DNA from: a virus
Strand: one strand, 5' to 3'
Virus record (IMG/VR): IMGVR_UViG_3300047678_000278
Coordinates: 1-50,145 of that record
DNA: 50,145 nucleotides
The notes under the pieces are model-generated. The model did not search any database and was not told the origin of the DNA. It was given only the letters and a program-made list of their open reading frames with translations. Below, piece after piece: positions 2,705 to 50,145 of the stretch; positions within the stretch are counted from its first letter, which is position 1, and every line of letters begins with the position of its first letter. Position numbers and translations under genes: made by a program.

Positions 2705-3217
2705 TCAGGCCGCCTTGTCGTCCTCGTCCTTCTGCGGGAGCCAGTCGAACGACGCATTGTTGTTGCCGTTCTTTCCGGTCCAGTGACGGACGCGAATGTC
2801 GAAGACGTGGCCGACAGCAGAGTCAGCCCAGCCGGGTTCCGCCCCTTCGACGGCGCCGAACGGACCGGTGAACGGGAGTCCGACCTGCTTATAGCGTCCC
2901 TGCAGAAGACCGACCAGAGTCGAGAAGTCGGTCGGCCATAGAGTGTAACGCTCGCGCATGTTCTTGCCGACGTGGGTCTCCGGGTCCTTCGACTTGTCGA
3001 GCGGCTTCGCGACGAGAATCTCGTACTGGTAGCCGACGAAGAACATCGGGGGCTTGTCGTCCTGGCCCTCGGTCTTCCCTGCCTTGACTTCGGTGCAGCG
3101 CACGGTGAAGATTCCGGCATCGGGCAGACGCGAGAGAAGGACGGTGGTCTCGTCGGTTGTGAGTGCCGCGAGATCGGCCAACGAAAACATGCTGGTTTCG
3201 GCGATCATTTCTGTCAT
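2705..3217 (-). CDS. Putative ssDNA-binding protein (DUF669-like), acidic C-terminus
   Basis: Track ORF. N-terminal pattern LPDAGIFTVRCTEVKAGKTEG...MFFVGYQYEI resembles DUF669 phage proteins. The tail is QKDEDDKAA. It sits beside an AAA_24-like ATPase, a common pairing. Confidence 0.4.
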   Translation of the reverse strand: MTEMIAETSMFSLADLAALTTDETTVLLSRLPDAGIFTVRCTEVKAGKTEGQDDKPPMFFVGYQYEILVAKPLDKSKDPETHVGKNMRERYTLWPTDFSTLVGLLQGRYKQVGLPFTGPFGAVEGAEPGWADSAVGHVFDIRVRHWTGKNGNNNASFDWLPQKDEDDKAA

Positions 3218-10807: not shown

Positions 10808-12034
10808 TTAACCCTCCTTTTTTCCAAAGTCCGAGAACCTGGCCATCATGGCATCGAATGCAGCGGAGAGCTCAGGGCTGAGTTTAGACGGCGCTTTGGG
10901 CGTTGATTTCTTTGGGGCCTTTTTACGGCCATAGAGTATATCCAATTCTTTCGCCGCTTTTTCGCCGACGTGTTTGATTGTCTGTCCGCCGTCAAGACGG
11001 GCAGCGCGAGCATTGACTCTCTTCATCTCATCCAGCCTACGGTCGGTAAATGAGATTTTCTCAATATCAGTCGTGAGTTGATCGACTGCGACAGTGAGTC
11101 TTTGCCTTTCCAGCTTGCTAACCGAGCCCATTAGATCAGATTGAGTCAGTATCTGCTGGATATTCTGAAGCAATTGACCGGCGGTCGAAGCGGATGACAG
11201 TCGGTTCTGGAGCGTCATTGAGTAAACGCGCTCGATTAAGGTCGGCGGAGTTTTCGTGTCACCGTCCGCGATTTTCGGAATACGACGCCGCAAGACTTTC
11301 ATCGCGGCGGAAATAATCATTGCATTCCCGGAGGGAGTAGGAGAGGAAGCAGTCAATCGCCCCATGTTATCCGCTTCGAGGGAAGAGAATATTGCATGGA
11401 GTGCTAGGAAGTCAAAAGGATTTGACTTATTCTCTAGCCACGCCAGAAATTTCGGTCCGTGGCGCGTGCTATCGACTGCATTGTGGAAGGAGAAGATTGA
11501 GTCAATCCGCAGCATACACTCGAAGACAGCGGTTTCCTCGCACTCAATATCCCACCATTTTTCCGGGAGAGTGGAAAGGTGAGTTTGGAAACGAATTAGG
11601 AAATCCAGTCGTTGGCGAAGTGTGCTGAATGAGTTCTTATGCCGAGCGGGAGTTAGAGTGTCGTAGAAGAAACGACCCATGACATAGCCGAATAGCTTAT
11701 TCGTGCCGTTGAGTTCATCGGCCCGCAAAGCATTGACTAGGGTATGATAGTTGGTATGAAATCGAATTGACGGCGCTGGCCCGCTGGAAAGGATCGCGTG
11801 GCGGATAGCGAATGCATCAACCAATTCCTTCTGAGCCGCTGTCGGCATATCCTGCAAGAGAGATCGCAGACATGTATTCAATTCCTCATCTGACATAACT
11901 CCGTATGCGAAGCCAGTGAGTGAGCAGTAGATATGGTGCATCTTGGCGGCTTTGATCTCGACTATTGATTCAGCCAATACAGGCGGATCGAATACGAAGT
12001 CATTAAAGCCGGAGAGATCGAATGTTTGAGTCAT
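10808..12034 (-). CDS. Hypothetical protein (408 aa), coiled-coil and Lys-rich C-terminus
   Basis: Track ORF 10808..12118 trimmed to MTQTFDLSGF, which is preceded by GGAGCTACTCAC. It ends ...ELSAAFDAMMARFSDFGKKEG. Confidence 0.55.
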   Translation of the reverse strand: MTQTFDLSGFNDFVFDPPVLAESIVEIKAAKMHHIYCSLTGFAYGVMSDEELNTCLRSLLQDMPTAAQKELVDAFAIRHAILSSGPAPSIRFHTNYHTLVNALRADELNGTNKLFGYVMGRFFYDTLTPARHKNSFSTLRQRLDFLIRFQTHLSTLPEKWWDIECEETAVFECMLRIDSIFSFHNAVDSTRHGPKFLAWLENKSNPFDFLALHAIFSSLEADNMGRLTASSPTPSGNAMIISAAMKVLRRRIPKIADGDTKTPPTLIERVYSMTLQNRLSSASTAGQLLQNIQQILTQSDLMGSVSKLERQRLTVAVDQLTTDIEKISFTDRRLDEMKRVNARAARLDGGQTIKHVGEKAAKELDILYGRKKAPKKSTPKAPSKLSPELSAAFDAMMARFSDFGKKEG

Positions 12035-12066
12035 GTGAGTAGCTCCTAGATAGTTGAGTAAGTGGA

Positions 12067-12291
12067 TTAGGTGCGGTTGATTACGATCTCGACGTTCTGG
12101 CTGACTGCCCAACGGCATATGCGAATAAGTCGTTCGCGCCCTGAGTATTTATCGAGATCGATTTCAAATCGAAACGGCTTGTCATTGTGCTTGTATTCAA
12201 GAAAGCACCAGCCGTGTTGAGTCGGTGTTGCCACCGCTGTCTTTGTGATGAAAGAGGGAAGTTGAGCCATGATTGCACCAATTTGATTCAA
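12067..12291 (-). CDS. Hypothetical protein (74 aa)
   Basis: Track ORF with a 4-nt overlap with the upstream gene. Confidence 0.45.
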   Translation of the reverse strand: MNQIGAIMAQLPSFITKTAVATPTQHGWCFLEYKHNDKPFRFEIDLDKYSGRERLIRICRWAVSQNVEIVINRT

Positions 12292-14421: not shown

Positions 14422-15357
14422 TTATACCTCGAAGAGATTCAAGAGAGGGGTGATTGTTGGGAAACGAAGTGGGATGGTAGCTCGTACGAATGCATCCCGT
14501 TCTCGCAGAGGCTCATGGAGTCGATAGATTCTCTCAGCCTGAGCGAAGATGACTCTTTTGATTCCTGCACTTCGAGCCTCTGCATCTGCAAGGGCGTTGC
14601 TGTACCGATTCTCGATCACCGATAAATCGTAGTCGCTGATATTCGCCCTATTCTGAAGGGAGTTCTTATCCTGCGTCGCACGGAAAAGCTGTGACTCAAG
14701 TTCAGGCAACCACATGTCTTCACAAGAAACAAAGTAGCGCAAAACGAGTTGTGACATCTGAATTATGTCATACTCTAGCTCCGGACGCAAAATTGGTTTT
14801 GACCTAAATTCATCGAGCAATTTGTCTAGAATCATAAGAGCAGCCGGCTTCGTATCGAATGGGTATTGCAGCCGCATCGTATATGATTTCCACAATGTAG
14901 GTGTGATTGGAGTATCAATGCCGAACTCAGTTGTGACTCGTGAGGCCAGATATGGGAGCGATGACGAGTTCGCAGCTAACAACCCACCAAGTGGAGAGAG
15001 GGTGTATGGGTCAGTGACTCCTAGAGCAGCCAGCCGCATCACAAAGTCATATGAGTTAAGACGCCATGAGTGATTCCGCTCATATTCTGCTTCTTCTTTG
15101 ATCTCGGCTTTGATTCGATCCTTGAGTGCGTGCCGGCTATCTTTCGTAGAGGGCCACCAAGGAAGTGACTCACGTTCATTCTGCGCCAATGCGAGCGTAT
15201 CTATGAAGAACTGCCGGTGATATTTCACCATTCCCTTCTCGAAAGAGAATGCTTCTGCCGGGAGTAGATGGAGTCGATTCTTTAAGATCGCTGCTGTGAG
15301 AGCGCCTTTGAAGTTAAAGGTTAATTCGGCAGTAGTGATATACTTTGGAATCGTCAT
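14422..15357 (-). CDS. Hypothetical early protein (311 aa)
   Basis: Track ORF 14422..15393 trimmed to MTIPKYITT, which is preceded by GAGGATACG. The track's TTG/ATG starts at 15393/15390 lie at or upstream of the predicted transcription start. Confidence 0.55.
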   Translation of the reverse strand: MTIPKYITTAELTFNFKGALTAAILKNRLHLLPAEAFSFEKGMVKYHRQFFIDTLALAQNERESLPWWPSTKDSRHALKDRIKAEIKEEAEYERNHSWRLNSYDFVMRLAALGVTDPYTLSPLGGLLAANSSSLPYLASRVTTEFGIDTPITPTLWKSYTMRLQYPFDTKPAALMILDKLLDEFRSKPILRPELEYDIIQMSQLVLRYFVSCEDMWLPELESQLFRATQDKNSLQNRANISDYDLSVIENRYSNALADAEARSAGIKRVIFAQAERIYRLHEPLRERDAFVRATIPLRFPTITPLLNLFEV

Positions 15358-15392: not shown

Positions 15393-15421
15393 ATAGTAGA
15401 TGAATCGCGAAAGCATGTCAA
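15393..15421 (-). promoter_or_regulatory. Sigma70-like early promoter, leftward (P_L)
   Basis: Minus strand reads TTGACA (15421-15416), a 17-nt spacer, then TACTAT (15398-15393). Confidence 0.55.
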
Positions 15422-15459
15422 GCGAAATGTGGTGAGTCGGTATAGAATTACGTTGCGGC

Positions 15460-15499
15460 TTCTATTCTACACTGAATGAGAGGAACAGCATGAATAGAA
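15460..15499. promoter_or_regulatory. Inverted pair of the 8-bp box TTCTATTC / GAATAGAA upstream of P_L
   Basis: ttctattc (15460-15467) and gaatagaa (15492-15499) are exact reverse complements. The same box recurs at 16652-16661 and 16669-16678. Confidence 0.4.
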
Positions 15500-15568
15500 A
15501 AACCTGGAGTCTGGTTGCAGGAGGCCAAAGGATTAGCATGTAATATGTGATAGTGAGTCATAGTCCCA

Positions 15569-15585
15569 GCGCCGAAGGCCCTCAC
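15569..15585 (-). repeat. GT(G/A)AGGG + GCC-TTC-GGC motif, copy 1 (inverted orientation)
   Basis: The reverse complement reads gtgagggccttcggcgc. Its upstream flank gagacgtcgcttgtgaggg matches copy 3 (gatacgtcgctcgtaaggg). Confidence 0.7.
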
Positions 15586-15594
15586 AAGCGACGT

Positions 15595-15636
15595 CTCAAC
15601 ACCTCAACACCTCAACACCTCAACACCTCACAACAC
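15595..15636. repeat. Microsatellite (CTCAACAC), 4 perfect copies plus 1 variant
   Basis: Read directly from the sequence; the tract has no G. Confidence 0.95.
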
Positions 15637-15669
15637 TCATGCCCTATCGATTCGTTGCGCTCCCTAGGA

Positions 15670-15723
15670 CATGAGTGTGATGAATGTGATGAATGTGATG
15701 AATGTGATGAATGTGATGAATGC
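15670..15723. repeat. Microsatellite (GATGAATGT), 4 perfect copies plus 2 variants
   Basis: Read directly from the sequence; C occurs only at the first and last positions. Confidence 0.95.
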
Positions 15724-15737
15724 ATAGATTATAAGAA

Positions 15738-15765
15738 CGGTTAATGTAAGGGCGACTGGCGTCGC
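15738..15765 (+). repeat. GTAAGGG + hairpin motif, copy 2 (variant stem GCGAC-TGGC-GTCGC)
   Basis: cggttaatgtaagggcgactggcgtcgc. The upstream half resembles copies 6 and 7 (cggtaaacgtaaggg). Confidence 0.65.
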
Positions 15766-15768
15766 GCT

Positions 15769-15790
15769 ATCTGAATCATATCTGAATCAC
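15769..15790. repeat. 11-bp direct repeat TATCTGAATCA, 2 copies
   Basis: Read directly. Each copy contains TGAATCA, whose reverse complement TGATTCA occurs twice at 15863-15880. Confidence 0.9.
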
Positions 15791-15837
15791 AATTATATAA
15801 TGAGGGGGACTTATGTAATGAGGGAGATACGTCGCTC

Positions 15838-15855
15838 GTAAGGGCAACTTCGTTG
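15838..15855 (+). repeat. GTAAGGG + hairpin motif, copy 3 (stem CAAC-TTC-GTTG)
   Basis: gtaagggcaacttcgttg. The stem sequence differs from other copies but the pairing and the TTC loop are kept. Confidence 0.65.
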
Positions 15856-15859
15856 TGGT

Positions 15860-15880
15860 CATTGATTCAACATTGATTCA
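15860..15880. repeat. Direct repeat CATTGATTCA, 2 copies
   Basis: Read directly. Reverse complement of the TGAATCA pair about 90 bp upstream. Confidence 0.9.
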
Positions 15881-15887
15881 CATCTGC

Positions 15888-15912
15888 GGCGCCGAAGGCG
15901 GAGCGGCCGAAG
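15888..15912 (-). repeat. Core hairpin motif, copy 4 (inverted; CGCC-GAA-GGCG on the plus strand)
   Basis: ggcgccgaaggcggagcggccgaag. The reverse complement contains gccttcggcgcc and a second cttcggc. No GTAAGGG is attached. Confidence 0.5.
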
Positions 15913-15987
15913 AAAACCATCACACTCACTACTAGATTCGTGCTATGTGCGTATTGACTCTATTAATACACCTATCATTGATCTGTC

Positions 15988-16029
15988 ATTCGTTATTCGT
16001 TATTCGTTATTCGTTATTCGTTATTCGTT
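15988..16029. repeat. Microsatellite (ATTCGTT), 6 perfect copies
   Basis: Read directly from the sequence. Confidence 0.95.
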
Positions 16030-16063
16030 ACTCATTATTCACCATTCATTATCCATTATTTAT

Positions 16064-16095
16064 CCATCATCCATCATCCATCATCCATCATCCAT
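16064..16095. repeat. Microsatellite (CCATCAT), 4.5 copies
   Basis: Read directly; G-free. It runs straight into motif copy 5. Confidence 0.95.
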
Positions 16096-16110
16096 AAGGG
16101 CCTTCGGCGT
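16095..16110 (+). repeat. (A)TAAGGG + GCC-TTC-GGC motif, copy 5
   Basis: taagggccttcggcgt. Confidence 0.65.
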
Positions 16111-16176
16111 GCTTGATAGGTTTGCTTGATATGACTCATGTAACCATTGAGCAACAATTCGTATTATACTGTGTGC

Positions 16177-16204
16177 GATGGAGAATGGAGGATGGAGAAT
16201 GGAG
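16177..16204. repeat. Microsatellite ((G/A)ATGGAG), 4 copies
   Basis: gatggag aatggag gatggag aatggag; C-free. It presents four GGA motifs. Confidence 0.95.
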
Positions 16205-16205
16205 A

Positions 16206-16230
16206 CGGTAAACGTAAGGGCCTTCGGCGC
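16206..16230 (+). repeat. 25-mer CGGTAAACGTAAGGGCCTTCGGCGC, copy 6
   Basis: Identical to 16458-16482. Confidence 0.95.
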
Positions 16231-16233
16231 ATT

Positions 16234-16275
16234 GGTGTTGGTGTTGGTGTTGGTGTTGGTGTTGGTGTTGGTGTT
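16234..16275. repeat. Microsatellite (GGTGTT), 7 perfect copies
   Basis: Read directly; contains only G and T. Reverse complement AACACC is embedded in each unit of the CTCAACAC array. Confidence 0.95.
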
Positions 16276-16458
16276 GTTGTTCGTTGACTCGATATCATTC
16301 ATTGACTCGATGCTATCCATTAGCTTGACATTGCCTATTAGCTCAATGGCTCACTGGCTCACTGGCTCAATACTATTCAATGGCTCGATATTATTCATTG
16401 ACTTGACACTATTCACTGGCTCAATGTTATTCATTAGCTCAATATTGTTCATTGGCTC
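16276..16458. repeat. Degenerate 18-bp tandem array (about 9 units, consensus near TATTATTCATTGGCTCAA) with an inserted TGGCTCA(C/A) triplet; iteron-like
   Basis: My hand segmentation gives units ending in ...gactcga, ...gactcga, ...agcttga, ...agctcaa, three tggctca(c/a), then ...ggctcga, ...gacttga, ...ggctcaa, ...agctcaa, ...ggctcgg. Confidence 0.8.
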
Positions 16459-16482
16459 GGTAAACGTAAGGGCCTTCGGCGC
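16458..16482 (+). repeat. 25-mer CGGTAAACGTAAGGGCCTTCGGCGC, copy 7
   Basis: Identical to 16206-16230. Confidence 0.95.
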
Positions 16483-16615
16483 TTCCATTCCCACTCCCCC
16501 TTCACCCCTCCCAATAGTGAATCAATGATGCTGAATCAAGGGCTAAAGTGTGGGTGAGAATGGGATAAAACCGAGAGATATAACACTGATCCATGAGATG
16601 CTTACCTTTAAGAGG

Positions 16616-16680
16616 GGTATTATTTTTTCTATTATATTTATTCTTTCATAGAAGAATAGAAGAACATAAAGAATAGAAAT
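16616..16680. other. AT-rich block with an inverted repeat and GAATAGAA direct repeats (candidate DNA-unwinding element)
   Basis: tattctt (16639-16645) pairs with aagaata (16652-16658). aagaatagaa occurs at 16652-16661 and 16669-16678. This is the most AT-rich stretch I saw in the window. Confidence 0.35.
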
Positions 16681-16953
16681 CCTAAGACCCCCCTAGGAGA
16701 ACCTTTTCACACTCGCACTCATTATATCTCTCTTTTCCTGCCCCACAATTTGACTCATTCCCACCTCACCACGGTGATTCCCAGGGCACACCTACGGAAG
16801 GTGCTACCTACGCCACAACGGTTGACTCTCCGCCCCCCTCCGCCCCTCCTTCCCTCCTCAACCGCTAAAATTTGACTCAACCTCCCCTCACCCGCCCCCA
16901 ACCCATTGATTTTTCAGCAAAAAAAATATCTCGACTCGACCCCCTATCTCACC

Positions 16954-16982
16954 TTTACATCCGTCCCCCAAAAGCGTACACT
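16954..16982 (+). promoter_or_regulatory. Sigma70-like early promoter, rightward (P_R)
   Basis: TTTACA (16954-16959), a 17-nt spacer, then TACACT (16977-16982). It lies about 70 nt upstream of ATG 17054. Confidence 0.45.
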
Positions 16983-17013
16983 TTCCCCAGTCCGCTGCAT
17001 TCAGCACCGGACG

Positions 17014-17040
17014 AAACCAAACCAAACCAAACCAAACCAA
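17014..17040 (+). repeat. (AAACC), 5 copies, in the predicted 5' leader just before the SD of gene 17054
   Basis: gaaaccaaaccaaaccaaaccaaaccaaGGAActcaacaccATG. Confidence 0.9.
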
Positions 17041-17053
17041 GGAACTCAACACC

Positions 17054-17908
17054 ATGTCTACTCTCAACGTAATCACTGACGAAAAATCCATCGAGCGAGT
17101 TAAGAAGGCTGCAACCGGCGGAACCATGCGGAAAGTCTATTCCACTATGGAAGCGGCAATCGCCGCCATGCAGTCCCTCGCTCCTATCGCCGCCGAACTC
17201 AAAATCGCCATCAAGACGGCCGATCCAGAGACCTTTGCAGCCGAAGGAATGCAGCCGGTAATCGCCATCGTCGGCGCTCGCAAAGAAGAAACCGGCGCAG
17301 ACGGCAAGAAGCGCGGAGTCGTCGGCATTAAGGGGGTTGCATTCTTCCCAATCCCCACCCTCGACACATTCCTTTCCGACGAGCAGGGGCGTGACTGGCT
17401 CGTTAAGATCGCCGAGAAAGAAGCCGCACACGTTATCTTCCGTCCACTCCGCTCCGCTGAAAGCCTCGAAGAACTCGATACAGCAGCACTCCCGTCGAGT
17501 GTCGCCGCAATCGTCATGTCGAGCCGCGCCGACGCACTCGATACTGACTGGCTCGATGCAGTCTGGCCGATGGCTCGTGAGGGACTCAAGCTCAAAGCCC
17601 CAAAGCTTTACGAAGCTCTGCCGAAGCAGAAAGCGGAACTCGTGAAGTGCCTGCGCTCGAAGTCCTACGCCGAGGGCGCATACTCAGTCCTAGAGGGAGC
17701 CAACGCATTCACCGGCGCGCTGGCAGCATTCCTTATGAAGGCCGGAGAACTCAACAAGGCGGAAGACGGCACGTCCGACCCGATCGATACCAGCGAACTC
17801 ACTCGCTGGCTTGACGCTCGTGACGAGACCAATCTCGCCATTCCGAAGCCCGCTGACTACTCGGCAATCGCTGGGCAGGACTTTAGCAAGATCGATATCG
17901 GCTTCTAG
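17054..17908 (+). CDS. Hypothetical protein (284 aa), first rightward gene
   Basis: Track ORF with AAGGAA SD. Ala/Glu-rich, ends ...DFSKIDIGF. No motif recognised. Confidence 0.65.
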   Translation: MSTLNVITDEKSIERVKKAATGGTMRKVYSTMEAAIAAMQSLAPIAAELKIAIKTADPETFAAEGMQPVIAIVGARKEETGADGKKRGVVGIKGVAFFPIPTLDTFLSDEQGRDWLVKIAEKEAAHVIFRPLRSAESLEELDTAALPSSVAAIVMSSRADALDTDWLDAVWPMAREGLKLKAPKLYEALPKQKAELVKCLRSKSYAEGAYSVLEGANAFTGALAAFLMKAGELNKAEDGTSDPIDTSELTRWLDARDETNLAIPKPADYSAIAGQDFSKIDIGF

Positions 17909-18839: not shown

Positions 18840-19622
18840 ATGACAGATATGTTTGAGAAGGAGGGGGCGAAAAAAAATTTGCGAGGAGTCTTTGACGATA
18901 TTGATTTGAGTCAATGGGAGAATCCTGCCGTGGGAGCGGAGAAGGAGAAGGTGGAGGTGGAGGTGGAGAAGGTGATTGCGACTCCGTTGATTCCTGCTGC
19001 CCCGAAGGTGAAGCTGTCGGATATTGCGCGGTTGATTCTGAATGCTGATTCAAACGCGCCGGCTGGGAACGCGGAGGGGTTGAATGCCTCCCGTCAGGTT
19101 TTGGCTGATCGACTCGGCTGCACTGTGGCTGATATTAAGGAGGTCGCGGATAGCTACGGAGTCGATGCCTGGACCGCCCTTGTTTCGGAGGAGCGGGTGA
19201 AGCGGAGTCTTTCGATTGCGGCTGAACGCGATATCAGCTGGGATCGGCTCGAGAGTGTGGTGCTCAGGAAGTTGTTGAATCTGGTTGAGAACGATCGCGT
19301 GCAGACGGTGTCGGAGTTGGCCGCACTCAGCAAGCTGGCGAATCAAGCGACTCGTAGCCCGGATCGTAAAAGGGTTGGCGGTGGCGCGGACCAGCCGGGA
19401 GTTGGGTTGCAGGTGAATCAGCAATTCAACAATTATCTTCCTGGGAGCCCGGAGCACGGGGTTCTTCCTTCAGGGCATCTTGGCCGAATGACTCTTTCCC
19501 TCACCCACCGGATTCACAAGCAGATCGAAGGCGACGTGGTGAAGGGTGCGAGGGATTTGGATTCGCTGGAGATGCTGAGCCTGAAGGATATCCAGGAAGC
19601 AGAGAAGGCGTATGGGACGTGA
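18840..19622 (+). CDS. Putative small terminase subunit (assigned by position)
   Basis: Track ORF. It lies immediately upstream of TerL and overlaps it as GTGA. No diagnostic motif, so the call rests on position only. Confidence 0.4.
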   Translation: MTDMFEKEGAKKNLRGVFDDIDLSQWENPAVGAEKEKVEVEVEKVIATPLIPAAPKVKLSDIARLILNADSNAPAGNAEGLNASRQVLADRLGCTVADIKEVADSYGVDAWTALVSEERVKRSLSIAAERDISWDRLESVVLRKLLNLVENDRVQTVSELAALSKLANQATRSPDRKRVGGGADQPGVGLQVNQQFNNYLPGSPEHGVLPSGHLGRMTLSLTHRIHKQIEGDVVKGARDLDSLEMLSLKDIQEAEKAYGT

Positions 19623-29738: not shown

Positions 29739-30299
29739 ATGGTTGCCCCTCCCGTTCCTCGCACGAACCAAGAGAATCGTTTCCTACGCATACCGTCGTA
29801 TGATTGGAATCGACTCATCAAGGACCTGCAGGACCTGAACGCGGAAGTTCAGGCTCTCGGGACTCGTGCGGATCAGGGCGGCGATAAAGGGGATCAGGGG
29901 CCGGCGGGGACTCCTGGGGCGCCAGGTGAGCCTGGATCGCCGGGTGCGGCTGGCGCGATTGGGGCGCCGGGATTGAGTGGATCGAACGGCCTCAGTGCGT
30001 ATGAGATCGCGGTTCTCTTTGGATTCACAGGCACGATTGAGGAATGGTTGGCGTTAACCGCACCATTCACGCTCTCGGAGGCAGTGAGTCTAAGGATAAT
30101 TGCTTCGAGTCCTACTGTTCAGGCTCTGCTGCGTGGGGATATTCCTGAATACTGGGATGGCGGTCATATCGATCGTGATTACGGGTTGCTCGGTGACTCG
30201 ATGGATCTTGATCTAACCGGTTCGTTTGAGATTACGCAGGATGGATTGCTGATCGTGACCGAGAACGGTAATAATTACATTGCGGTGGAAGGAATCTAA
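29739..30299 (+). CDS. Collagen-like repeat tail fibre protein
   Basis: Track ORF. G-X-Y run GDKGDQGPAGTPGAPGEPGSPGAAGAIGAPGLSGSNG is followed by SAYEIAVLFGFTGTIEEWL, a common phage fibre motif. Confidence 0.8.
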   Translation: MVAPPVPRTNQENRFLRIPSYDWNRLIKDLQDLNAEVQALGTRADQGGDKGDQGPAGTPGAPGEPGSPGAAGAIGAPGLSGSNGLSAYEIAVLFGFTGTIEEWLALTAPFTLSEAVSLRIIASSPTVQALLRGDIPEYWDGGHIDRDYGLLGDSMDLDLTGSFEITQDGLLIVTENGNNYIAVEGI

Positions 30300-37748: not shown

Positions 37749-40256
37749 GTGGCCGGTTTTGACTTCCAGGCTCTTCAGAGTCAAATGGACGAACACAATG
37801 CCCTCGCGGAACAGCGGCGGCAGATGGAGGAGGCTGCGGCTCAAAGACAGCGGCAGATTGCTGAGAAGTCGGCAAGGTTGACGAGTCAATATGGCCAGTC
37901 TCTCACATTCCTGAGGGATACGCTGGAGCAGAATAACGCGGCAGTGACTCGTGAACGGAAACTGCAAAGCGGGAACATTTTCGATCAAATCACCCTCGAA
38001 GGGTTGAAGATGATTGACCCGAATCGATTCGATGCTCAGCGCCGGTCGCAGCGGTTATCGGAAGACATGCAGCGCGCAGGTGCGGTTGGGCAGCTGCATA
38101 ACGCGAATCAGAGTGTCCTACAGGCTGAAGCAATGGAGGGTGCTTCGCAGGTAGAGGAGATGAAAACGATCGAGGGTCTGTCGCTTCAGCGGCTGAAGAG
38201 CTTTCGTGAGTCCGCCGAGATCATGCGCGGGAATTTCGAGGCCGCGGAGACGATGACTATACTCGCGACCAACGGTATGGATACGAGTCAACTCGACGCC
38301 GCAATCGCGCAGGCGCAGTTGAGTGGCGGGAAGACGAATATCGGCGGCGTGGATATCTCGTTGGATCGGCTGAAGGGACTCCGGACTGACCGTTCCGAAG
38401 TGGAATTCACTCGGGAGTATCGCGGACTCATTCAAGAGCGCCAGCTATTCGAAGCGCAGGAGCTGGTGAAGAACATTCCCGGCGAGCAGGCGATCAATGA
38501 TGTGAAGCGGCGCCCGGAGAACGTGCAGGCCGAGCAGTTGTTGGCGCAGGAGTCGGTGAACGACCGTCTCCGAATCATGGACCAGCGCGCGCAGGAACGG
38601 ATGCTCGGGCATGTGCCGTTGGAACGAATCAATGAGATCCGTGCGAACAATTACATCGATCCCGAAGATGGGATGAAGTACGATCCGGCGATCGTGGACA
38701 CTGCGCACTCACGGCAGCTGGCTGCGAGAAGTGACACCATTGCCAACCGCGTGAATGAAGAGACGTTCAAGCAGTATGATACGAAGGCGCTGATGGGTGA
38801 GGCGGATCGAGTCGATGCTCTCATGCCGCGATTCCCTGCGAATTCCCCGTTGGCTCAGACGGCTTACAAATACAAGCAGACTCTCGCTACCGTCAGCAAC
38901 GTGGTTGGTCCGGATCGTCCGGCCACCGATCGTATGGTTGGTATGACTATGTTGGATGCTGCGCGATCAGCATTCGACAAAGCGATCGATGCTCAAGTCA
39001 AGGTCGATACCAAAGACGCGAATATGCAGGAGGTATACCGGGAGTTCTACCGCGGCAATCCGATTCCGACGGAGAATCTCTTCTCAGCTCTCGATGAACG
39101 CCTACGCTCCAACAAATCACTCTCCGGAGTCCTTCCGGCTGACCTCGCGATTCGTGTGCAGAAATACTACGCGCAGGGATATCAGCAGAAGAAAGTTGCT
39201 TCCATGGGCAGTATCGGTGGCGGAACTGATGACAAGCTCCTCCGTGCTGAAGCGGCGCAGGAAGCACTCGATCGAACCATCGGGGAGATGAGCGCTACTC
39301 AATCGAACGGCGCCATTCTCGATCAGATCAACTTCCCCGGCCATCCGCTTCGGTCCATGGGGAAGGAACGATTCATGTCGGTCATTGCGACCGCGGATCA
39401 GAAGGCATTCACAGTCTGGGCGGAAGGGAATAAACTGACTCCGGAGAACGCCTTCAAGATCAGTCAGGGTGAGACTGTGGAAGGACTCGATCCGGCCGAA
39501 GCGCAGTCGCTGTTCTCGCAGTTGCAGCAGAGTCAGAATACGCAGCTCCTGCTTCAACTCGAAGCTCATCGCCCAGGCGCCGGAACCGAACTCACCGAAT
39601 GGTGGGCGCAGTCGGGGATGGATTATATCTCGAATATCAATCCGACTGTGCGTGGTGGCGCGACTGTGTCGGATGGCGTGGTGAATTCTCTGGTGAAGGA
39701 CCGGCTGCAGGAGCAGTTGAAGAACTACGGTCTGAATCTGTATCAAGCCGATGGCAACATTCGGCAGGAGCAGGCGAAAGACTTCGCAGGCATGATCAAT
39801 TTCGGCGGGAATCCCGAAGCCAGCCAGATCATCATGCTAAATATGGCGAAGGAACTCGGCCCGGATGAGAAGCGTCGAGTGTTCGATGGAGTCATCAAGC
39901 CGCTGCTGGTGGAAGCGGAGCAGCGTGGGCTGGGGTTCAAGGATGCGAATGCATTCGTGGAGAACGGGATTCTCAACCCCTCTCCCAACGTCGATCCAGG
40001 GGTGGTGTCGCTGCTGAAGACTCTGAAGCGGACTCGCGGCGACGTAGTCGATCACGTCGATCAGCTGGCGAGGTGGGGAGCCTATTATTACGCCTACAGT
40101 TGGGAGGGGTATGACGAGAAGACTCAGAACCCGACGCCCGACTATCTCGATTGGTATAAGGGTGGGCAGAAATTCAAGAAGGGTCCAGGATACCCGACTT
40201 CGGATGACAATACCCGCCCGAAGTATAAGCTCCCGCGCCTCGGAATCACCCCGTAA
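37749..40256 (+). CDS. Putative internal virion protein (835 aa)
   Basis: Track ORF. GTG start follows GGTGGAGG. Gln/Ala-rich helical sequence. Confidence 0.45.
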   Translation: MAGFDFQALQSQMDEHNALAEQRRQMEEAAAQRQRQIAEKSARLTSQYGQSLTFLRDTLEQNNAAVTRERKLQSGNIFDQITLEGLKMIDPNRFDAQRRSQRLSEDMQRAGAVGQLHNANQSVLQAEAMEGASQVEEMKTIEGLSLQRLKSFRESAEIMRGNFEAAETMTILATNGMDTSQLDAAIAQAQLSGGKTNIGGVDISLDRLKGLRTDRSEVEFTREYRGLIQERQLFEAQELVKNIPGEQAINDVKRRPENVQAEQLLAQESVNDRLRIMDQRAQERMLGHVPLERINEIRANNYIDPEDGMKYDPAIVDTAHSRQLAARSDTIANRVNEETFKQYDTKALMGEADRVDALMPRFPANSPLAQTAYKYKQTLATVSNVVGPDRPATDRMVGMTMLDAARSAFDKAIDAQVKVDTKDANMQEVYREFYRGNPIPTENLFSALDERLRSNKSLSGVLPADLAIRVQKYYAQGYQQKKVASMGSIGGGTDDKLLRAEAAQEALDRTIGEMSATQSNGAILDQINFPGHPLRSMGKERFMSVIATADQKAFTVWAEGNKLTPENAFKISQGETVEGLDPAEAQSLFSQLQQSQNTQLLLQLEAHRPGAGTELTEWWAQSGMDYISNINPTVRGGATVSDGVVNSLVKDRLQEQLKNYGLNLYQADGNIRQEQAKDFAGMINFGGNPEASQIIMLNMAKELGPDEKRRVFDGVIKPLLVEAEQRGLGFKDANAFVENGILNPSPNVDPGVVSLLKTLKRTRGDVVDHVDQLARWGAYYYAYSWEGYDEKTQNPTPDYLDWYKGGQKFKKGPGYPTSDDNTRPKYKLPRLGITP

Positions 40257-43200: not shown

Positions 43201-45557
43201 CTGATCGTAATAGGGTGAGGACTGCGCTCGGACTCGATCAGATCGCTCGCCGTGAATGGTATACTCCGCCCGCCTACACGAAGAATAAGTATGTGGCGTT
43301 TACGTTCGACGCGGATAACAACCCGATTCCCGGCGGCGCTATCATCGGTGAGACACAGGCGCACTTCAATCAACTCATGTCAGAGAAAAGGGCGACGCTT
43401 CCGAAGGGCCACAAGATCTGGACTCGTGAAGAAGTCGAGTCGACTGCGGATATCTACGGAATGGCGGCGGTTGACTGGATTGATCCGGGAACCGGAGTCG
43501 CGCCTGCCCGCGCACAGACCGGCACGCTCGCGATGGATACTGTGAATCAGTATGCTGTCCAAGACACGATGGACTGGATGAAGCGGAGTGTGGAATCGAA
43601 TGCCAACGGCGCCGTCAGAGTGCTGTATGACGCGCAGTTGGGGATCGCACGCGCTCGCGGTGCGGCTGAACGAATGGGCGGGGCAGGAAAGAAAGCGAAG
43701 GAGAGCGTTCGCAGTATCTGGGATGAATATGAAGCAACGATTCTCGGCCGAAAGCTCGGAGATACTGGGAGGTCGATCACCGGGAATGTGATGAAGCCGA
43801 TTGAATCATTCCTTGATCGCGGTCTGGAGGAAGTGTGGCCGGCAATGAGTGCAGTCGGGCCGACTCAGTGGGCTCGGTGGTATTCGAATGTGCTGGAGAG
43901 AGTCGGCGCCCCAACGCACAAGGCCCGGACGTTCTCACAGTTGGCACAGAATCTCGGTCCCTACACGCCGTATAAGGATGCGGTGGATTACGCGGAACAG
44001 ACTCTGAAGATTCAGCGCCCGGCTGAAGTCAAGAAAATTTCGGAGAAGCTGAACTGGCTGGCTGCTTCGACTCTTCTCCGCTACATGGAAATCCCACACG
44101 CGGCGATGAATCTTATCGGCATCATGACCACTATGCCGTCGATCGCGCAGTCTGGGAGAGCACCGATCACTGGCTTCATGCAGGCTGGCAAGCAACGGTT
44201 CGGCGTGGTGGACACGTATAAGATACTCGGTGAGAGTGTGAAGGACATGACTCGTATGTCCCGCCACCCTGACTGGAAGCATATGGTAGATATGGGGTAT
44301 ACGGAACAGCAAGTCGCGGAATACAATTTGACTATGAGTGCAATTAAGGATCGGGGCAGCTTCAACCGTGTGTTCTTCGGTGATCCGAATCGAACCGGCA
44401 ACACCCTCGGAGATAAAGTGGCGCAGAAAGGAATCGATGGCGTCATCTCGCTGTTGACGGATACAACCGAGTCGTGGTCGAGGACTTACTCCCACTTCGT
44501 CGGTCTTCGGCTCGCGGATGCGCATGGGATCACTGGACTTGCTCAACGGCATGAGTTCGCGCATGAGGTAGCGAATGCTGCGATCGCGAATTACAACCCG
44601 CTCAATCGCCCTGAACTCTATAACTCCGCAATGGGTTCGATGTTTGGGTTGTTCATGAGTTGGACGCAGAATTACAATCAGCGACTCTTCCGCTGGCTGG
44701 AGCAAGGGGATTATCAGAGCGTCGGTCGACAGCTGGGAGTGCAGTCGGCTCTGTTCGGTGTCGCGTCGATGCCGGGGTATAACCATCTCGAATCGTTGCT
44801 CATGTCCACCGGGAATCTCGAAACGGAAGACGGCAATGATGCAACGATGATGGATATGATCTATGCGAAGTTCGGTCCGCAGATCGGATCGATGATTGCA
44901 CACGGTGGAATCAATCAGTTCAACACCGTGCTCTACACTCGCGGTGATATGAACTACCGGAATGCAAGCCTCGACCCGACTCAGCTCATGGCTGGCGTAT
45001 CGGTGATTGGGAGCGGAGTCAAAGCTGCGTGGGAGGCTGGGCAGGCGATGACTTCCACTTATGGGTTGGAAGATGCGAATCGACTCGGTGAGATCTTCGC
45101 CCGGAACATGCCGAACCGTATGTTGAAGGGAACGATGGAGGCGATACTGAATGGTGGGCAGTCCATCGATGCGAATGGGAGGATCATTTCCGAGAACCGC
45201 ACCGCTTTCGAGTCCAGCCTGAGGATTCTCGGTCTTCGATCCTCACGCCAGCAAGCGGAGATTGAAGCGTTCTATGCGGACAAGCAGCAACAGGCGAGGG
45301 AGGCAGCGCGTTCCGAGTCACTGCGAGAGGACACACGGAATCTGATGCGCAAGGGTCCGGGCTGGGAGAAGTCGCTGCCGGAGATTTTTGAGAAGTATAT
45401 GAAGCTGGGATTCAGGCCCGAACACTTCAGGACTTGGGTGCAGAACCAGTTGCGAGATTCGACGGATACGCGCGGAATAAGGGATTTGCAGAGGGCGATG
45501 CAGAATCCCCAGATGCAGCAGTCGGTGTGGAGGTATAATGCGTACGGGGCGCTTTAA
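40269..45557 (+). CDS. Giant virion protein (1762 aa), function unknown
   Basis: Track ORF and the last gene of the rightward arm. I recognised no catalytic motif. Confidence 0.6.
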   Translation: MPSFSSYSTQPDYLSKKLGGGQSQLALSAAQQMGLTRQLFNSQVQDREQQNMGWTPWILRTGAAATLDFVDVLNSSSPWGIASRGIESAIGINIPLNARGDMWDLTEEYGMEAGRDLAQFYRANSTMVEAVGGIGGAIATAGIASSLVLPKITNALASSSMISGSKLWQAGARVNASVRSRLATAQAEAAQNGQAFKYLSGPGLQYIGLRATQGVGVAAFEEAAIIAAMNQNSLIVGDDMANNLFWASIGITAGGALGGVASRFEMRRMLNDQNIVAQRAVAMDPQNVLRMWEENPSSFNTGQKAGSGGKESAVYTALRVASRQETPTSASPELGGRLDAFRNQNLAESQMVLQKLTTRGIEGNKNTGFSVNITDKKYNYGQHLMEASQENPTLLLGADSIGTFNRVDLNDIKPDVILPADTGNVLLDAARATFKQSGQPNAQAISVQKFKASHTPQEVRTYRKELLRLQKQSGEWAKRMTAAKDSGSPLRVTMEARKIHIESLYAAGDPALAKRARELEIQQPLMLVNKGWLPADTADAFEFAQYKRGSVKVSQPTTGVHDYALGLTSGSKRRVNESLDAGKIHNLSTSTWLETVEGMGEVMKKMMRAKQALVVPKTASWSQLDAFREYEKRGGVVDWKTQAGMQGAEDAELASIQAKAKIVGTLGNTGAGGYWNRLKLNLPLPSSLERIYDPAGDTMRAVLEAATKGATLAELKQLRVNMMNQHGFRLKESVPNLDGDMFNFNLSEQTKEWMDTPVAFFDTAPTNPVFHQGVIAEQIAELKAHRFIALTENALPGQMLPTFTKQIVSSPNFVESSNIRGLADDQVTGLGNWGTQLAGELLTREHRYRDSKVMLSALKIAEEKTRGTDAYLQTLVKNEMADVIPRLNAAPAAGSKVLLNQFLSNTSGWDLRASPVMTGGGKWAFELAETLANETRLGRKVVPGEILKNPRTGNEIVLDDLGLEFMTRFNSASEYIRADRNRVRTALGLDQIARREWYTPPAYTKNKYVAFTFDADNNPIPGGAIIGETQAHFNQLMSEKRATLPKGHKIWTREEVESTADIYGMAAVDWIDPGTGVAPARAQTGTLAMDTVNQYAVQDTMDWMKRSVESNANGAVRVLYDAQLGIARARGAAERMGGAGKKAKESVRSIWDEYEATILGRKLGDTGRSITGNVMKPIESFLDRGLEEVWPAMSAVGPTQWARWYSNVLERVGAPTHKARTFSQLAQNLGPYTPYKDAVDYAEQTLKIQRPAEVKKISEKLNWLAASTLLRYMEIPHAAMNLIGIMTTMPSIAQSGRAPITGFMQAGKQRFGVVDTYKILGESVKDMTRMSRHPDWKHMVDMGYTEQQVAEYNLTMSAIKDRGSFNRVFFGDPNRTGNTLGDKVAQKGIDGVISLLTDTTESWSRTYSHFVGLRLADAHGITGLAQRHEFAHEVANAAIANYNPLNRPELYNSAMGSMFGLFMSWTQNYNQRLFRWLEQGDYQSVGRQLGVQSALFGVASMPGYNHLESLLMSTGNLETEDGNDATMMDMIYAKFGPQIGSMIAHGGINQFNTVLYTRGDMNYRNASLDPTQLMAGVSVIGSGVKAAWEAGQAMTSTYGLEDANRLGEIFARNMPNRMLKGTMEAILNGGQSIDANGRIISENRTAFESSLRILGLRSSRQQAEIEAFYADKQQQAREAARSESLREDTRNLMRKGPGWEKSLPEIFEKYMKLGFRPEHFRTWVQNQLRDSTDTRGIRDLQRAMQNPQMQQSVWRYNAYGAL

Positions 45558-48699: not shown

Positions 48700-50145
48700 T
48701 CAAGCCACAACGGTCTGCTTATTTGATGGGTAGCGAGGAGTTTCAGCCAGCCATTGCTCGACTCCTTCTAGCCCTCCAATCGTTCTACCCTCTTTCCCAG
48801 CCCACTTGTAGCTGACTTCCGCCTCAATGCCGACCACAAATGTTTGGTCTCGGCATACGACGGGCCGACTCATCACATGAAAGATATCCTTGATGCCATC
48901 TTTCCACCGAGGGTGAGTGTAGCGAATATTAAAAGTGAGAGAATCATGAGTCTGAAGACGTAGGCTGGCCCCGTGAGTTTGAGGGCTGATTCTCCGTGGA
49001 GGGTCAGCAGCATCAGGAGCAGGACCATCCCGAAAAGAGCAAGTTCGGATACCAAGGATCAGTTCCTCCATTACGGTGTTGATTCGTCCGGCTGTATTCG
49101 CCTGCCCCATAGTGGCTGCACCAGCGCGTAGTACTTCATCGTCAAGCGGATCACCAATGAACCGTTGGAAATAATTGAAGATAGTTCGTAGTCCACCTGT
49201 AGCGACAAGCTCTTTCCGAATGTCGGTATACCAGGAATCAGCACCTGTTCGTTTAAGCCGAACATAGTGGGCTCGGAATTTATGTTCGAGTTCGGCGCAG
49301 AATTTAACGAGCCTTTCCTGCTGCCAGAGTCCAGCGTCCTTATTCCCCAACTCCTGTGCGGCAGCAACGATTGCTTCTCGACCGGCGGTCATGAGTAGAG
49401 TCAAACCCGCCATCAAATAGTTATTCCCGTGGACTAGCTTCTTAGTGATTTGACGAATGCCAGTAATCGGATGAACGATCTTCGGATCGTGAGTTTTTTT
49501 GCCGGCGACGATTCTCTCATAGGTCCAGTTTGTGAAGAAGATGAGGGCATTGGAGGCATGAATGTCACGACCTGAACGGATGAGATCAATCTTTCTTGGA
49601 TCGCCTGACTCAAAGGACACGAACACTTCGTCGGCTCCAGAGAAGTCAATGTCCAGCAGGAAGGAATCTGAGTCAGCCTCAAGGAATACTCGGTATTCTT
49701 TTCGGATATTCTGAGCGTTACCCCCGTGTCCGAACGCAGAGCCCCGTGATGAAAGCCGAGTCGTCGTTGTGCCAACACCGTCATATGCCGTAAGGAATCG
49801 GAACTCACCTGGACGGTGACGGATCGGGAACTGTGGCATGCCCACGACATTGGACAGCTGCTTGGCGGGCTCGATTGCTTCGAGGATTCCATTGCTAACT
49901 CTCCTGAAAACTGGGTGTTCGTCCCGCATTGCGCGCAGAACCATTGCGCCAGTAGAGGCTTCCTCGGTTTTCTTAACGAATCGGCCACGTGCATTTCTCG
50001 GGCGAGCGCCGAGGATGGAGTAGAGGAGTTCGTGTTTTTGTTTGGGGGAGTTGGGGTTGAACTCCGGGTCAGCAATGAGATAGCGGAGTCGTTCAATTTT
50101 CTCATCCGCGAGTTTGGTGAGATCGATCTCGAATTTCTTCATGGT
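48700..50145 (-). CDS. DNA polymerase family A, C-terminal polymerase domain (joined length 2112 nt, 703 aa)
   Basis: Track ORF 48700..50142. Motif A-like DIDFSGADEV, motif B-like RQITKKLVHGNNYLMAG and motif C-like LQTHDSL are present. The 5' end continues through the 127-nt overlap into 1..793. Confidence 0.9.
   Translation of the reverse strand, partial: TMKKFEIDLTKLADEKIERLRYLIADPEFNPNSPKQKHELLYSILGARPRNARGRFVKKTEEASTGAMVLRAMRDEHPVFRRVSNGILEAIEPAKQLSNVVGMPQFPIRHRPGEFRFLTAYDGVGTTTTRLSSRGSAFGHGGNAQNIRKEYRVFLEADSDSFLLDIDFSGADEVFVSFESGDPRKIDLIRSGRDIHASNALIFFTNWTYERIVAGKKTHDPKIVHPITGIRQITKKLVHGNNYLMAGLTLLMTAGREAIVAAAQELGNKDAGLWQQERLVKFCAELEHKFRAHYVRLKRTGADSWYTDIRKELVATGGLRTIFNYFQRFIGDPLDDEVLRAGAATMGQANTAGRINTVMEELILGIRTCSFRDGPAPDAADPPRRISPQTHGASLRLQTHDSLTFNIRYTHPRWKDGIKDIFHVMSRPVVCRDQTFVVGIEAEVSYKWAGKEGRTIGGLEGVEQWLAETPRYPSNKQTVVA
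50019..50145. repeat. Terminal overlap, copy 2 (identical to 1..127)
   Basis: Same 127-nt string as 1..127. The unique genome length is therefore 50018 bp. Confidence 0.95.

Follow-up and report, generated by a model that had tools for sequence, protein, structure and literature searches.

The closest described counterparts of a gene-free phage locus built from tandem repeats are the SRL and SRR regions of phage T7, the iteron origins of phage lambda, plasmids and phage P4, the terminal 'a' sequence of herpesviruses, the pac site of phage P1 and the contingency loci of bacteria. The herpesvirus 'a' sequence carries different short reiterations around the cleavage and packaging signal, with an A/T-rich core between runs of G and C, and the copy numbers of these reiterations vary between strains. 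The pac site of P1 is a 162-bp site inside a gene, in which clustered methylatable hexamers containing the Dam site GATC flank the cut. In this study, we analysed the 1660 bp at positions 15394-17053 of the IMG/VR virus record IMGVR_UViG_3300047678_000278, here called the region or the hub; the window is the whole stretch of 50,145 nt. We show that the region is a patchwork of genuine tandem arrays specific to one phage lineage. The reading that we prefer, with a probability of roughly 0.5, is that of a hub in which a conserved promoter, origin or packaging layer would be overlaid by a recent, lineage-specific layer of arrays born by slippage. Compared with the repeat-rich origin and terminal regions of T7, lambda-type phages and herpesviruses, this hub is unusual in the number of unrelated arrays.

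Concerning T7, the arrays at 174-245, 282-340 and 39646-39675 of its genome belong to one unit family with units about 13 bp apart. T7 and the window have in common that gene-free DNA lies beside the packaging end of a podovirus genome and that tandem or near-tandem short units occur together with promoters for host RNA polymerase, which in the hub are predicted ones. Unlike T7, the hub combines at least ten unrelated units, a single-subunit RNA polymerase is not seen in this phage, and its large terminase subunit (TerL) and capsid protein are of other lineages. The region is not a member of the T7 class. The original prediction had suggested a link to the T7 group, which is not supported, since a scan of 44 proteins with Pfam and/or PHROGs revealed no RNA polymerase. 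The best matches of TerL (Polaromonas phage Tiera, EBPR podovirus 3 and the Pseudomonas phages 119X and PaP2) share about 27% identity with it, the capsid protein is of SU10 type, and blastn detected nothing similar to the region in 50,697 phage records. Podovirus-like in character, the phage is an orphan.

Iteron origins resemble the hub more closely in one part of it. About ten direct 18-bp repeats (16284-16458), 75-80% matching and with internal dyad symmetry, are followed about 140 bp to the right by an AT-rich element, and the site lies beside a replication arm. In contrast to the known iteron origins, an initiator protein is not identified here, the 18-bp array is not conserved as such in relatives, and the other nine arrays are without a counterpart. 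The herpesvirus 'a' sequence offers an analogy in that the AT-rich island of the hub is flanked by GGGG and CCCCCC and several arrays cluster around it; it belongs to a eukaryotic virus without sequence relationship, and cleavage in the hub is only putative. Like P1 pac, the hub contains doublets of a methylatable palindrome (TGAWTCA, which contains GANTC), placed symmetrically in the arms of a palindrome of about 140 bp and again at 16518/16532. Unlike P1, GANTC is enriched genome-wide here, and clustering alone is therefore weak evidence for a likeness to pac. Like bacterial contingency loci, the hub has perfect repeats of short units close to promoters and within a 5' leader, and these have expanded in a lineage-specific way (AAACC x5.4 as compared to x1 in the related contig L004). 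It differs from them in that no array lies in a -35/-10 spacer or in a real open reading frame (ORF), and in that the phage is of lytic type.

Arrays were called with Tandem Repeats Finder (TRF), and coverage was counted at a score >=40. Arrays occupy 501 of the 1660 bp of the region (30%) as compared to 309 of 48,485 bp (0.64%) elsewhere in the window, which is a 47-fold concentration, and 200 first-order Markov simulations of the region sequence contained a mean of 0.02 arrays. At least ten unrelated units are present, with periods of 5, 6, 7, 8, 9, 11 and 18. The original prediction had described at least ten different arrays as exceptional and several as restricted in alphabet; TRF recovers every listed array at the given place, and the alphabets are as described. 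On the plus strand these are array A (CTCAACAC x4.5, 15595-15630), array B (ATGAATGTG x5.8, 15671-15722), array E (ATTCGTT x7.6, 15988-16040), array F (ATCCATC x4.9, 16062-16095), array G (ATGGAGA, or (G/A)ATGGAG x4, 16177-16205), array H (TTGGTG, equivalent to GGTGTT, x8.3, 16232-16281), array I (about ten degenerate 18-bp units with consensus TCATTGGCTCAATATTAT, 16284-16458) and array J (AAACC x5.4, 17014-17040). Array C (TATCTGAATCA x2, 15768-15789) and array D (CATTGATTCAA x1.9, 15860-15880) form part of the left and right arm, respectively, of the palindrome of about 140 bp. Arrays A, F and J lack G, arrays B and G lack C, and array H consists of G and T alone. Smaller arrays beyond the earlier list are CATTATTTATC x3.3, which runs into the ATCCATC array as one stretch entirely without G on the plus strand (E', 16033-16095), GCTCACTG x3.6, ATAGAAGA x3.8 and C-rich units of 8-11 bp at 16828-16903.

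The arrays are genuine and not an artefact of assembly. An independent Logan assembly (ERR9963791_52637 from run ERR9963791, 49,472 bp) agrees with the window throughout its overlap with the region; the two assemblies are identical where they overlap, arrays A, I and J included. The Logan contig ends fall inside arrays B and H, the flanks of which are reproduced, because the perfect repeat there exceeds k=31; of all perfect repeats, only these two, the longest perfect arrays, can form a loop in a graph with k=31. A second assembly which matches the region and stops only at such repeats argues against an artefact. The window itself has an exact 127-bp terminal overlap (1-127 = 50019-50145) and is thus a circular assembly (k=127) with a true genome length of 50,018 bp.

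On this circle, leftward genes on the minus strand run from 45713 through the junction to 15357 and form a replication arm with DNA polymerase A, a DUF3987 primase/helicase, a PD-(D/E)XK nuclease and a RecD/Dda-type helicase. Rightward genes on the plus strand (17054-45557) form a packaging and virion arm with a conserved protein without an assigned fold, a putative small terminase, TerL, the SU10-type capsid protein, an endolysin, tail proteins and a 1762-aa protein. Its packaging module lies directly to the right of the region (gene 17054, putative terS at 18840, TerL at 19619). Since the minus arm ends at 15357 and the plus arm begins at 17054, the region is the single divergence point of the two arms and the one large intergenic hub of the genome.

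Two sigma-70-type promoter-like sites face outwards from its edges. P_L (15421-15393, minus strand, TTGACA-17-TACTAT) has 10 of 12 matches and precedes the first leftward gene (ATG 15357) by about 35 nt; TTGACA was read directly in the same relative position in the related contigs L003 and L005. P_R (16954-16982, plus strand, TTTACA-17-TACACT) lies about 70 nt upstream of gene 17054. The original prediction is thus borne out in describing the region as flanked by diverging transcription units, with a promoter-like site at either edge, and fails in taking the right side for a classical early region, the right arm being that of packaging and virion genes. Inside the region, promoter-like sites (5 as compared to 4.2 expected) and terminator-like sites (4 as compared to 2.2) are not in excess. 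All arrays lie outside the predicted -35/-10 spacers, and AAACC alone is in a 5' leader, that predicted for gene 17054. Between the Shine-Dalgarno sequence and the ATG of this gene stands the 9-mer CTCAACACC (17045-17053, plus strand). These 9 nt directly 5' of the start codon are the unit of array A; the 9-mer occurs six times in the window, four times in array A, once at the start site of gene 17054 and once elsewhere.

The region holds no credible ORF, as had been claimed. The longest, of 116 aa (16178-16528), is a low-complexity read-through of the 6-bp GGTGTT array and the 18-bp array, with a product of the form LVLVLV... followed by six-residue repeats; the contig is in the collection, yet this ORF is absent from the called genes on the record. 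A further ORF, at 15947-16129, was considered as a gene and rejected, as it is not among the called genes either.

Relatives were found by way of the gene 17054 family, the members of which are 30-73% identical. They comprise the Logan contigs L003 (47 kb), L004 and L005, the small metagenome contigs L027-L030 and, in IMG/VR, five genomes of 46-52 kb (L031-L033, L035, L036) and the shorter contig L034. The relatives share the divergent layout and have a gene-free gap of 0.8-1.5 kb in the same place. We compared the gaps of eight relatives with the same divergent architecture, L003, L005, L026 (Tiera), L031-L033, L035 and L036. Their gaps contain zero to three small arrays, and the patchwork is found in none of them; the array-richest gap is that of L035, with ATTCAT x7.3 and two others. 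The same 18-bp array occurs in no relative, and each gap has a dispersed repeated motif family of its own. Alignment to related contigs, a check proposed in the original prediction, showed that the arrays are lineage-specific, while P_R and the leader are kept in L004. In this contig, the noncoding DNA of which is about 65-70% identical and the adjacent protein 73% identical, both P_R hexamers and several leader blocks are conserved, and the AAACC x5.4 array corresponds to a single GAAACCAA.

Repeats of other kinds were seen in and near the gaps of relatives. L005 carries at 2729-3057 about seven copies of a motif of about 20 nt (GAGCGCATCGCATAAAGC...), about 40-60 nt apart and in one orientation; this series is iteron-like, unlike the motif series of the window. 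In Tiera, a more distant isolate, the gap of 780 bp holds a perfect 72-bp tandem duplication (L026 2929-3073, record positions 43928-44072), which may be related to the genome ends of this phage. L003 has arrays (an 18-bp unit x3.5 and GCAC x7.2, 11340-11436) just downstream of its gene 17054 homologue, not upstream.

Three observations bear on when and how the arrays arose. The units are 100% identical within arrays A, C, D, F and J, and so are those of array G when it is taken as a 14-bp unit; at period 7, unit identity in G is 90%. It is 93-97% in arrays B, E and H and drops to 75-80% in just two, the 18-bp array and the CATTATTTATC array; since identity is so high, most arrays are to be judged young. 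Secondly, both the array A unit, which equals the start-site 9-mer of gene 17054, and the 18-bp unit, a degenerate form of ATTGACTCAAT, indicate local seeds. Thirdly, arrays lie in each of the long gaps between GANTC sites in the hub (177, 153 and 215 bp), and we roughly estimate that these gaps would come near the 60-90 bp typical of the clade if every array were reduced to a single unit. Together, unit identity, the start-site 9-mer and the GANTC gaps point to recent local expansion of short seeds. The original prediction had offered four possible functions, namely genome ends, an origin, protein-binding decoys and repeat-containing RNAs. The comparison with relatives favours an origin or packaging hub at this place and speaks against a conserved function for individual arrays.

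The mechanism that we propose has two layers. The conserved scaffold of the hub would be the seat of replication initiation and/or of terminase recognition and the genome ends, and P_L, P_R, lineage-specific dispersed motifs, TGANTCA palindromes, the iteron-like array and the AT-rich island would be its marks. On this scaffold, nine or more young arrays may have accumulated in this one lineage by slipped-strand mispairing or unequal exchange of short local seeds. The site of expansion would be the least constrained DNA of the genome and probably the DNA most often nicked or unwound. Given such a young, lineage-specific slippage origin, most arrays would be at most spacer or unstructured leader and not conserved sequence-specific elements. 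The older, degenerate 18-bp array beside the AT island is the best candidate for a protein-binding element of origin type.

The putative marks of the scaffold lie between and within the arrays; the punctuating motif, the palindrome of about 140 bp formed by the two 11-bp arrays and the AT-rich island had escaped the original prediction, as had the lack of the arrays in relatives. A punctuating motif of 17-25 nt with the core GTAAGGGCCTTCGGCG is present in three to four near-exact and three degenerate or partial copies; with up to three mismatches, its 16-mer matches five times in the window as compared to 0.37 expected. Copies stand at 15568-15585 (GTGAGGGCCTTCGGCGCT on the minus strand), 16094-16109 (ATAAGGGCCTTCGGCG, plus) and, as a perfect 25-mer pair on the plus strand, at 16206-16230 (CGGTAAACGTAAGGGCCTTCGGCGC) and 252 bp further on at 16458-16482. 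The degenerate copies are at 15746-15766 (GTAAGGGCGACTGGCGTCGCG, plus) and 15838-15858 (GTAAGGGCAACTTCGTTGTGG, plus), and a partial copy at 15889-15899 on the minus strand reads GCGCCGAAGGC, complementary to GCCTTCGGCGC.

Several identities of this motif were tried and rejected. It folds no better than shuffled sequence (z between -1.6 and +0.4), which speaks against a terminator or hairpin. A search of 185,579 species genomes with the 16-mer gave single, taxonomically scattered matches only, so that a repetitive extragenic palindromic or bacterial interspersed mosaic element of a host is not indicated; exact matches in IMG/VR are likewise single and scattered and do not mark relatives. A coding role ('VNVRAFGA', with three synonymous-looking differences in the 15740 copy) was dropped, as an in-frame upstream start codon is absent and a pattern like this would arise by chance with a probability of about 0.1. 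Copies on both strands at spacings of 92-348 bp and a lack of cas genes nearby are incompatible with a CRISPR array. RNA repeats of a type III (ToxI-type) antitoxin were dismissed as well, the tandem units being 5-18 nt with no toxin gene nearby and no Rfam match.

The imperfect palindrome of about 140 bp (15757-15897), the arms of which hold arrays C and D, is predicted to fold as RNA with -55 kcal/mol (z = -3.4; none of 200 shuffles as good). Each arm has two TGAWTCA heptamers (15772/15783 and 15863/15874). A smaller inverted repeat from the end of array A to the start of array B (15628-15683, arms of 19 nt, 84% complementary) has no significant predicted fold (z = -1.6). The 12-mer ATATGACTCATG (16128-16139) is a palindrome centred on GANTC; the identical 12-mer stands in the intergenic gap of L031 (5054-5065), and 7-mers related to it are common to six to seven relatives. 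As many as 10 of the 49 TGANTCA heptamers of the genome fall in the hub, which makes up 3.4% of it, corresponding to a 6-fold enrichment. Every unit of the 18-bp array has the dyad core CATTG-N3-CAATG, and the units are degenerate copies of the GANTC-centred palindrome ATTGACTCAAT, which is intact in relative L035. To the right of this array, a C-rich tract without G is followed by a TGAATCA doublet (16483-16540, plus strand; doublet at 16518 and 16532).

The AT-rich island (16601-16694) includes the 80-nt stretch with the highest AT content in the genome (16601-16680, 77.5% AT) and an imperfect inverted repeat of 35 nt (16611-16645/16660-16694). Two AATTTGACTCA boxes follow on the plus strand at 16747 and 16869 (span 16747-16892), each continued by C-rich, G-poor sequence; similar boxes, (A)AATT(C/T)GACTCA, were read directly in L003. 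No tRNA was found, and Rfam at E<=1 returned only two chance snoRNA matches on the region.

Several points weigh against the two-layered hub. What speaks for the origin and packaging roles is architecture alone, and base-level comparison is possible with one relative alone, over only 139 bp of the region. GC skew dips at 16.5-18.5 kb of the window; as a marker of an origin this was discarded, because the dip is inconsistent in relatives. Neutral slippage alone leaves ten arrays in one 1.7-kb stretch unexplained, given that relatives have few and that the setting is a compact lytic-type genome, and it likewise leaves unexplained that most arrays are composed of only two or three of the four bases, with a marked asymmetry between the strands. 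Selection or gene conversion is hinted at by the perfect 25-mer pair and by the array A unit, which is identical to the start region.

Among the alternatives, the one that survives best, though we consider it unlikely, holds that the region contains the genome ends, in the form of a short direct terminal repeat that the circular assembly has collapsed, and that the arrays are terminal or concatemer-junction repeats with a packaging role or are made by end repair. It shares the location with the two-layered hub and differs in giving the arrays a role in packaging. The position directly upstream of the packaging module speaks for it, and so does the AT-rich core between G and C runs, which resembles pac1 of herpesviruses. 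The T7 arrays at 174-340 and 39646-39675 adjoin the terminal repeats of that phage, and a circular assembly with a 127-bp k-mer overlap is what a collapsed direct terminal repeat or a permuted genome would be expected to give. For Caulobacter phage Kuura, the TerL of which is distantly related, the experimentally inferred ends include a terminal repeat of 606 bp directly upstream of terS (PMC9959647). The hub lies in the same relative position, which speaks for the two-layered hub as well. Against a packaging role of the arrays, those of T7 are of one family as opposed to ten unrelated units here, and searches of TerL by sequence against the Protein Data Bank (PDB) and Pfam did not assign a packaging class. 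Relatives with the same packaging genes are without the arrays, which therefore are not essential for packaging in the clade.

The same comparison burdens a second alternative, in which the arrays are binding platforms or decoys, each bound cooperatively by a DNA-binding protein of its own, encoded by phage or host. Cooperative arrays of this kind include heptads for ribbon-helix-helix repressors and partition proteins, 8-bp metboxes and iterons. Units of 6-11 bp in four to eight head-to-tail copies match such operator arrays (omega, ParR, MetJ), the 18-bp units have dyad symmetry, and the 6-fold enrichment of TGANTCA palindromes would fit as well. Ten unrelated units, on the other hand, need about ten specificities, neighbouring proteins are without a detected DNA-binding domain, two- or three-letter units such as GGTGTT and AAACC have no dyad symmetry, and relatives keep the neighbouring genes without having the arrays. 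We regard such platforms as improbable.

Repeat-containing RNAs stand no better. According to this alternative, tracts of A and C only (A, J and the start region) and tracts of G and U only (H and B) would pair with each other or titrate factors, for example as an anti-start-site switch for gene 17054, or with the GGA-rich array G as a CsrA-type sponge. The distribution of CTCAACACC, with its four copies in array A and one before ATG 17054, is in favour, as is the array H word TGGTGTTG, which is complementary to CTCAACACC at the gene 17054 start, and the place of array J in the predicted 5' leader. The predicted duplex between H and the 5' leader reaches -45.5 kcal/mol and that between H and A -48.8, as compared to -13 to -20 for random genome segments; A with B gives -40.5 and F with G -34.9 kcal/mol. 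Permuted units of the same composition and period pair as well, however (A-H 0.07, H-J 0.89, F-G 0.14; C/D alone is specific), so that the sense/antisense pattern is mostly one of A/C-only against G/U-only composition. The arrays as specific complementary pairs (A/B, F/G, H/J, H/A) were thus rejected as explained by base composition, with C/D as the sole true inverted repeat. Moreover, the region has no excess of promoter-like or terminator-like sites and no Rfam match, shuffled versions of the punctuating motif fold as well as the motif itself, and the arrays lack conservation. We give this alternative little credence.

More doubtful still is a hypervariable device, in which transcribed A/C-only tracts (A, J and CTCAACACC) and G/U-only tracts (H and B) would act as a multivalent sense/antisense set, changes of their copy number by slippage tuning expression of the first gene of the right arm or the balance between replication and packaging. 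If true, this would be an RNA-level phage counterpart of bacterial contingency loci.

It is very improbable that ORF 16178-16528 (116 aa, or 109 aa from ATG 16199) is translated into a hydrophobic repeat peptide. The frame is open across the 6-bp and 18-bp arrays, the periods of which are multiples of 3, and a strong Shine-Dalgarno-like GGAGGA stands 5 nt before ATG 16199. Both array consensus units are open in all three forward frames, and the openness of the ORF is therefore expected; further counterarguments are that it was never called as a gene, that periods are not divisible by 3 in seven of the ten main arrays (A, C, D, E, F, G and J) and that the gaps of relatives have no homologous ORF. 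That the arrays are chimeric or collapsed products of short reads, as a metagenome contig with a k=127 circular overlap and the Logan contig breaks inside two arrays might suggest, is hardly credible, because perfect arrays in the region are at most 53 bp long, below read length and k=127, and the second assembly stops only where a perfect repeat is longer than k=31.

The gene bordering the hub on the right, 17054-17908 (family P0001-P0007), is conserved across the clade and represents an uncharacterised protein family heading the packaging arm. The AlphaFold model of its product has a mean predicted local distance difference test score of 80 and a predicted template modelling score of only 0.46; Foldseek gave no match in PDB or BFVD, and there is no Pfam or PHROG match. 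The left neighbour (14422-15357) has no homologue but itself. Further away in the right arm, the small protein encoded at 29739-30299 shows a borderline match to the collagen triple-helix repeat (26.5 bits, with a Pfam cut-off of 27.2) and is probably a tail fibre or decoration component.

Apart from the arrays, the whole genome is marked by the site GANTC, which is of the CcrM/HinfI type. The window has 683 sites (13.6 per kb), 3.55 times the expectation, and enrichment is 2.9-4.7-fold in all eight clade members sampled (the window, L003, L005, L031, L032, L033, L035 and L036). GANTC is not enriched in Tiera, Kuura, PaP2, T7 and unrelated contigs. In 34 genes, 537 sites were counted as compared to 257 +/- 12 after shuffling of synonymous codons, with an excess in all three frames and for all four central bases. 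The sites are more evenly spaced than expected: in the window and its relatives the gaps have a coefficient of variation of 0.46-0.76 as compared to 0.99 +/- 0.05 for random placement, and the pooled gap histogram has one broad peak at 40-80 bp with a median of 60 and a depletion below 40 bp. A special clustering of GANTC in the region was considered and rejected, since site density there equals the genome average and only TGANTCA is enriched. Two genes, 17054-17908 and 10808-12118, have few sites (2.3 and 4.6 per kb, respectively, as compared to 13.6 genome-wide), and the latter lies even below the expectation from synonymous shuffling. The homologue of gene 17054 has no GANTC in L005 and about half the local density in L003, L031, L033 and L035; in L032 and some small contigs it is not depleted. 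Neither a methyltransferase nor an obvious GANTC-binding protein is among the scanned proteins. We found no description of such an enrichment in the collection of papers searched; the opposite trend, a depletion of GANTC, is reported for some pelagiphages (PMC9516812). The GANTC pattern would make a selective constraint at the level of DNA directly testable, and it may outweigh the finding of the arrays.

Tandem-repeat clusters as dense as this one are very unusual in compact phage genomes. The region explains the fragmentation of this genome in k-mer assemblies, and its arrays are natural length markers for strain-level evolution of an uncultured phage clade in metagenomes. The comparative result is a warning against reading function into repeats that are striking but not conserved. 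If the region holds an origin or a packaging cut, it would show such a site turning into a local microsatellite factory.

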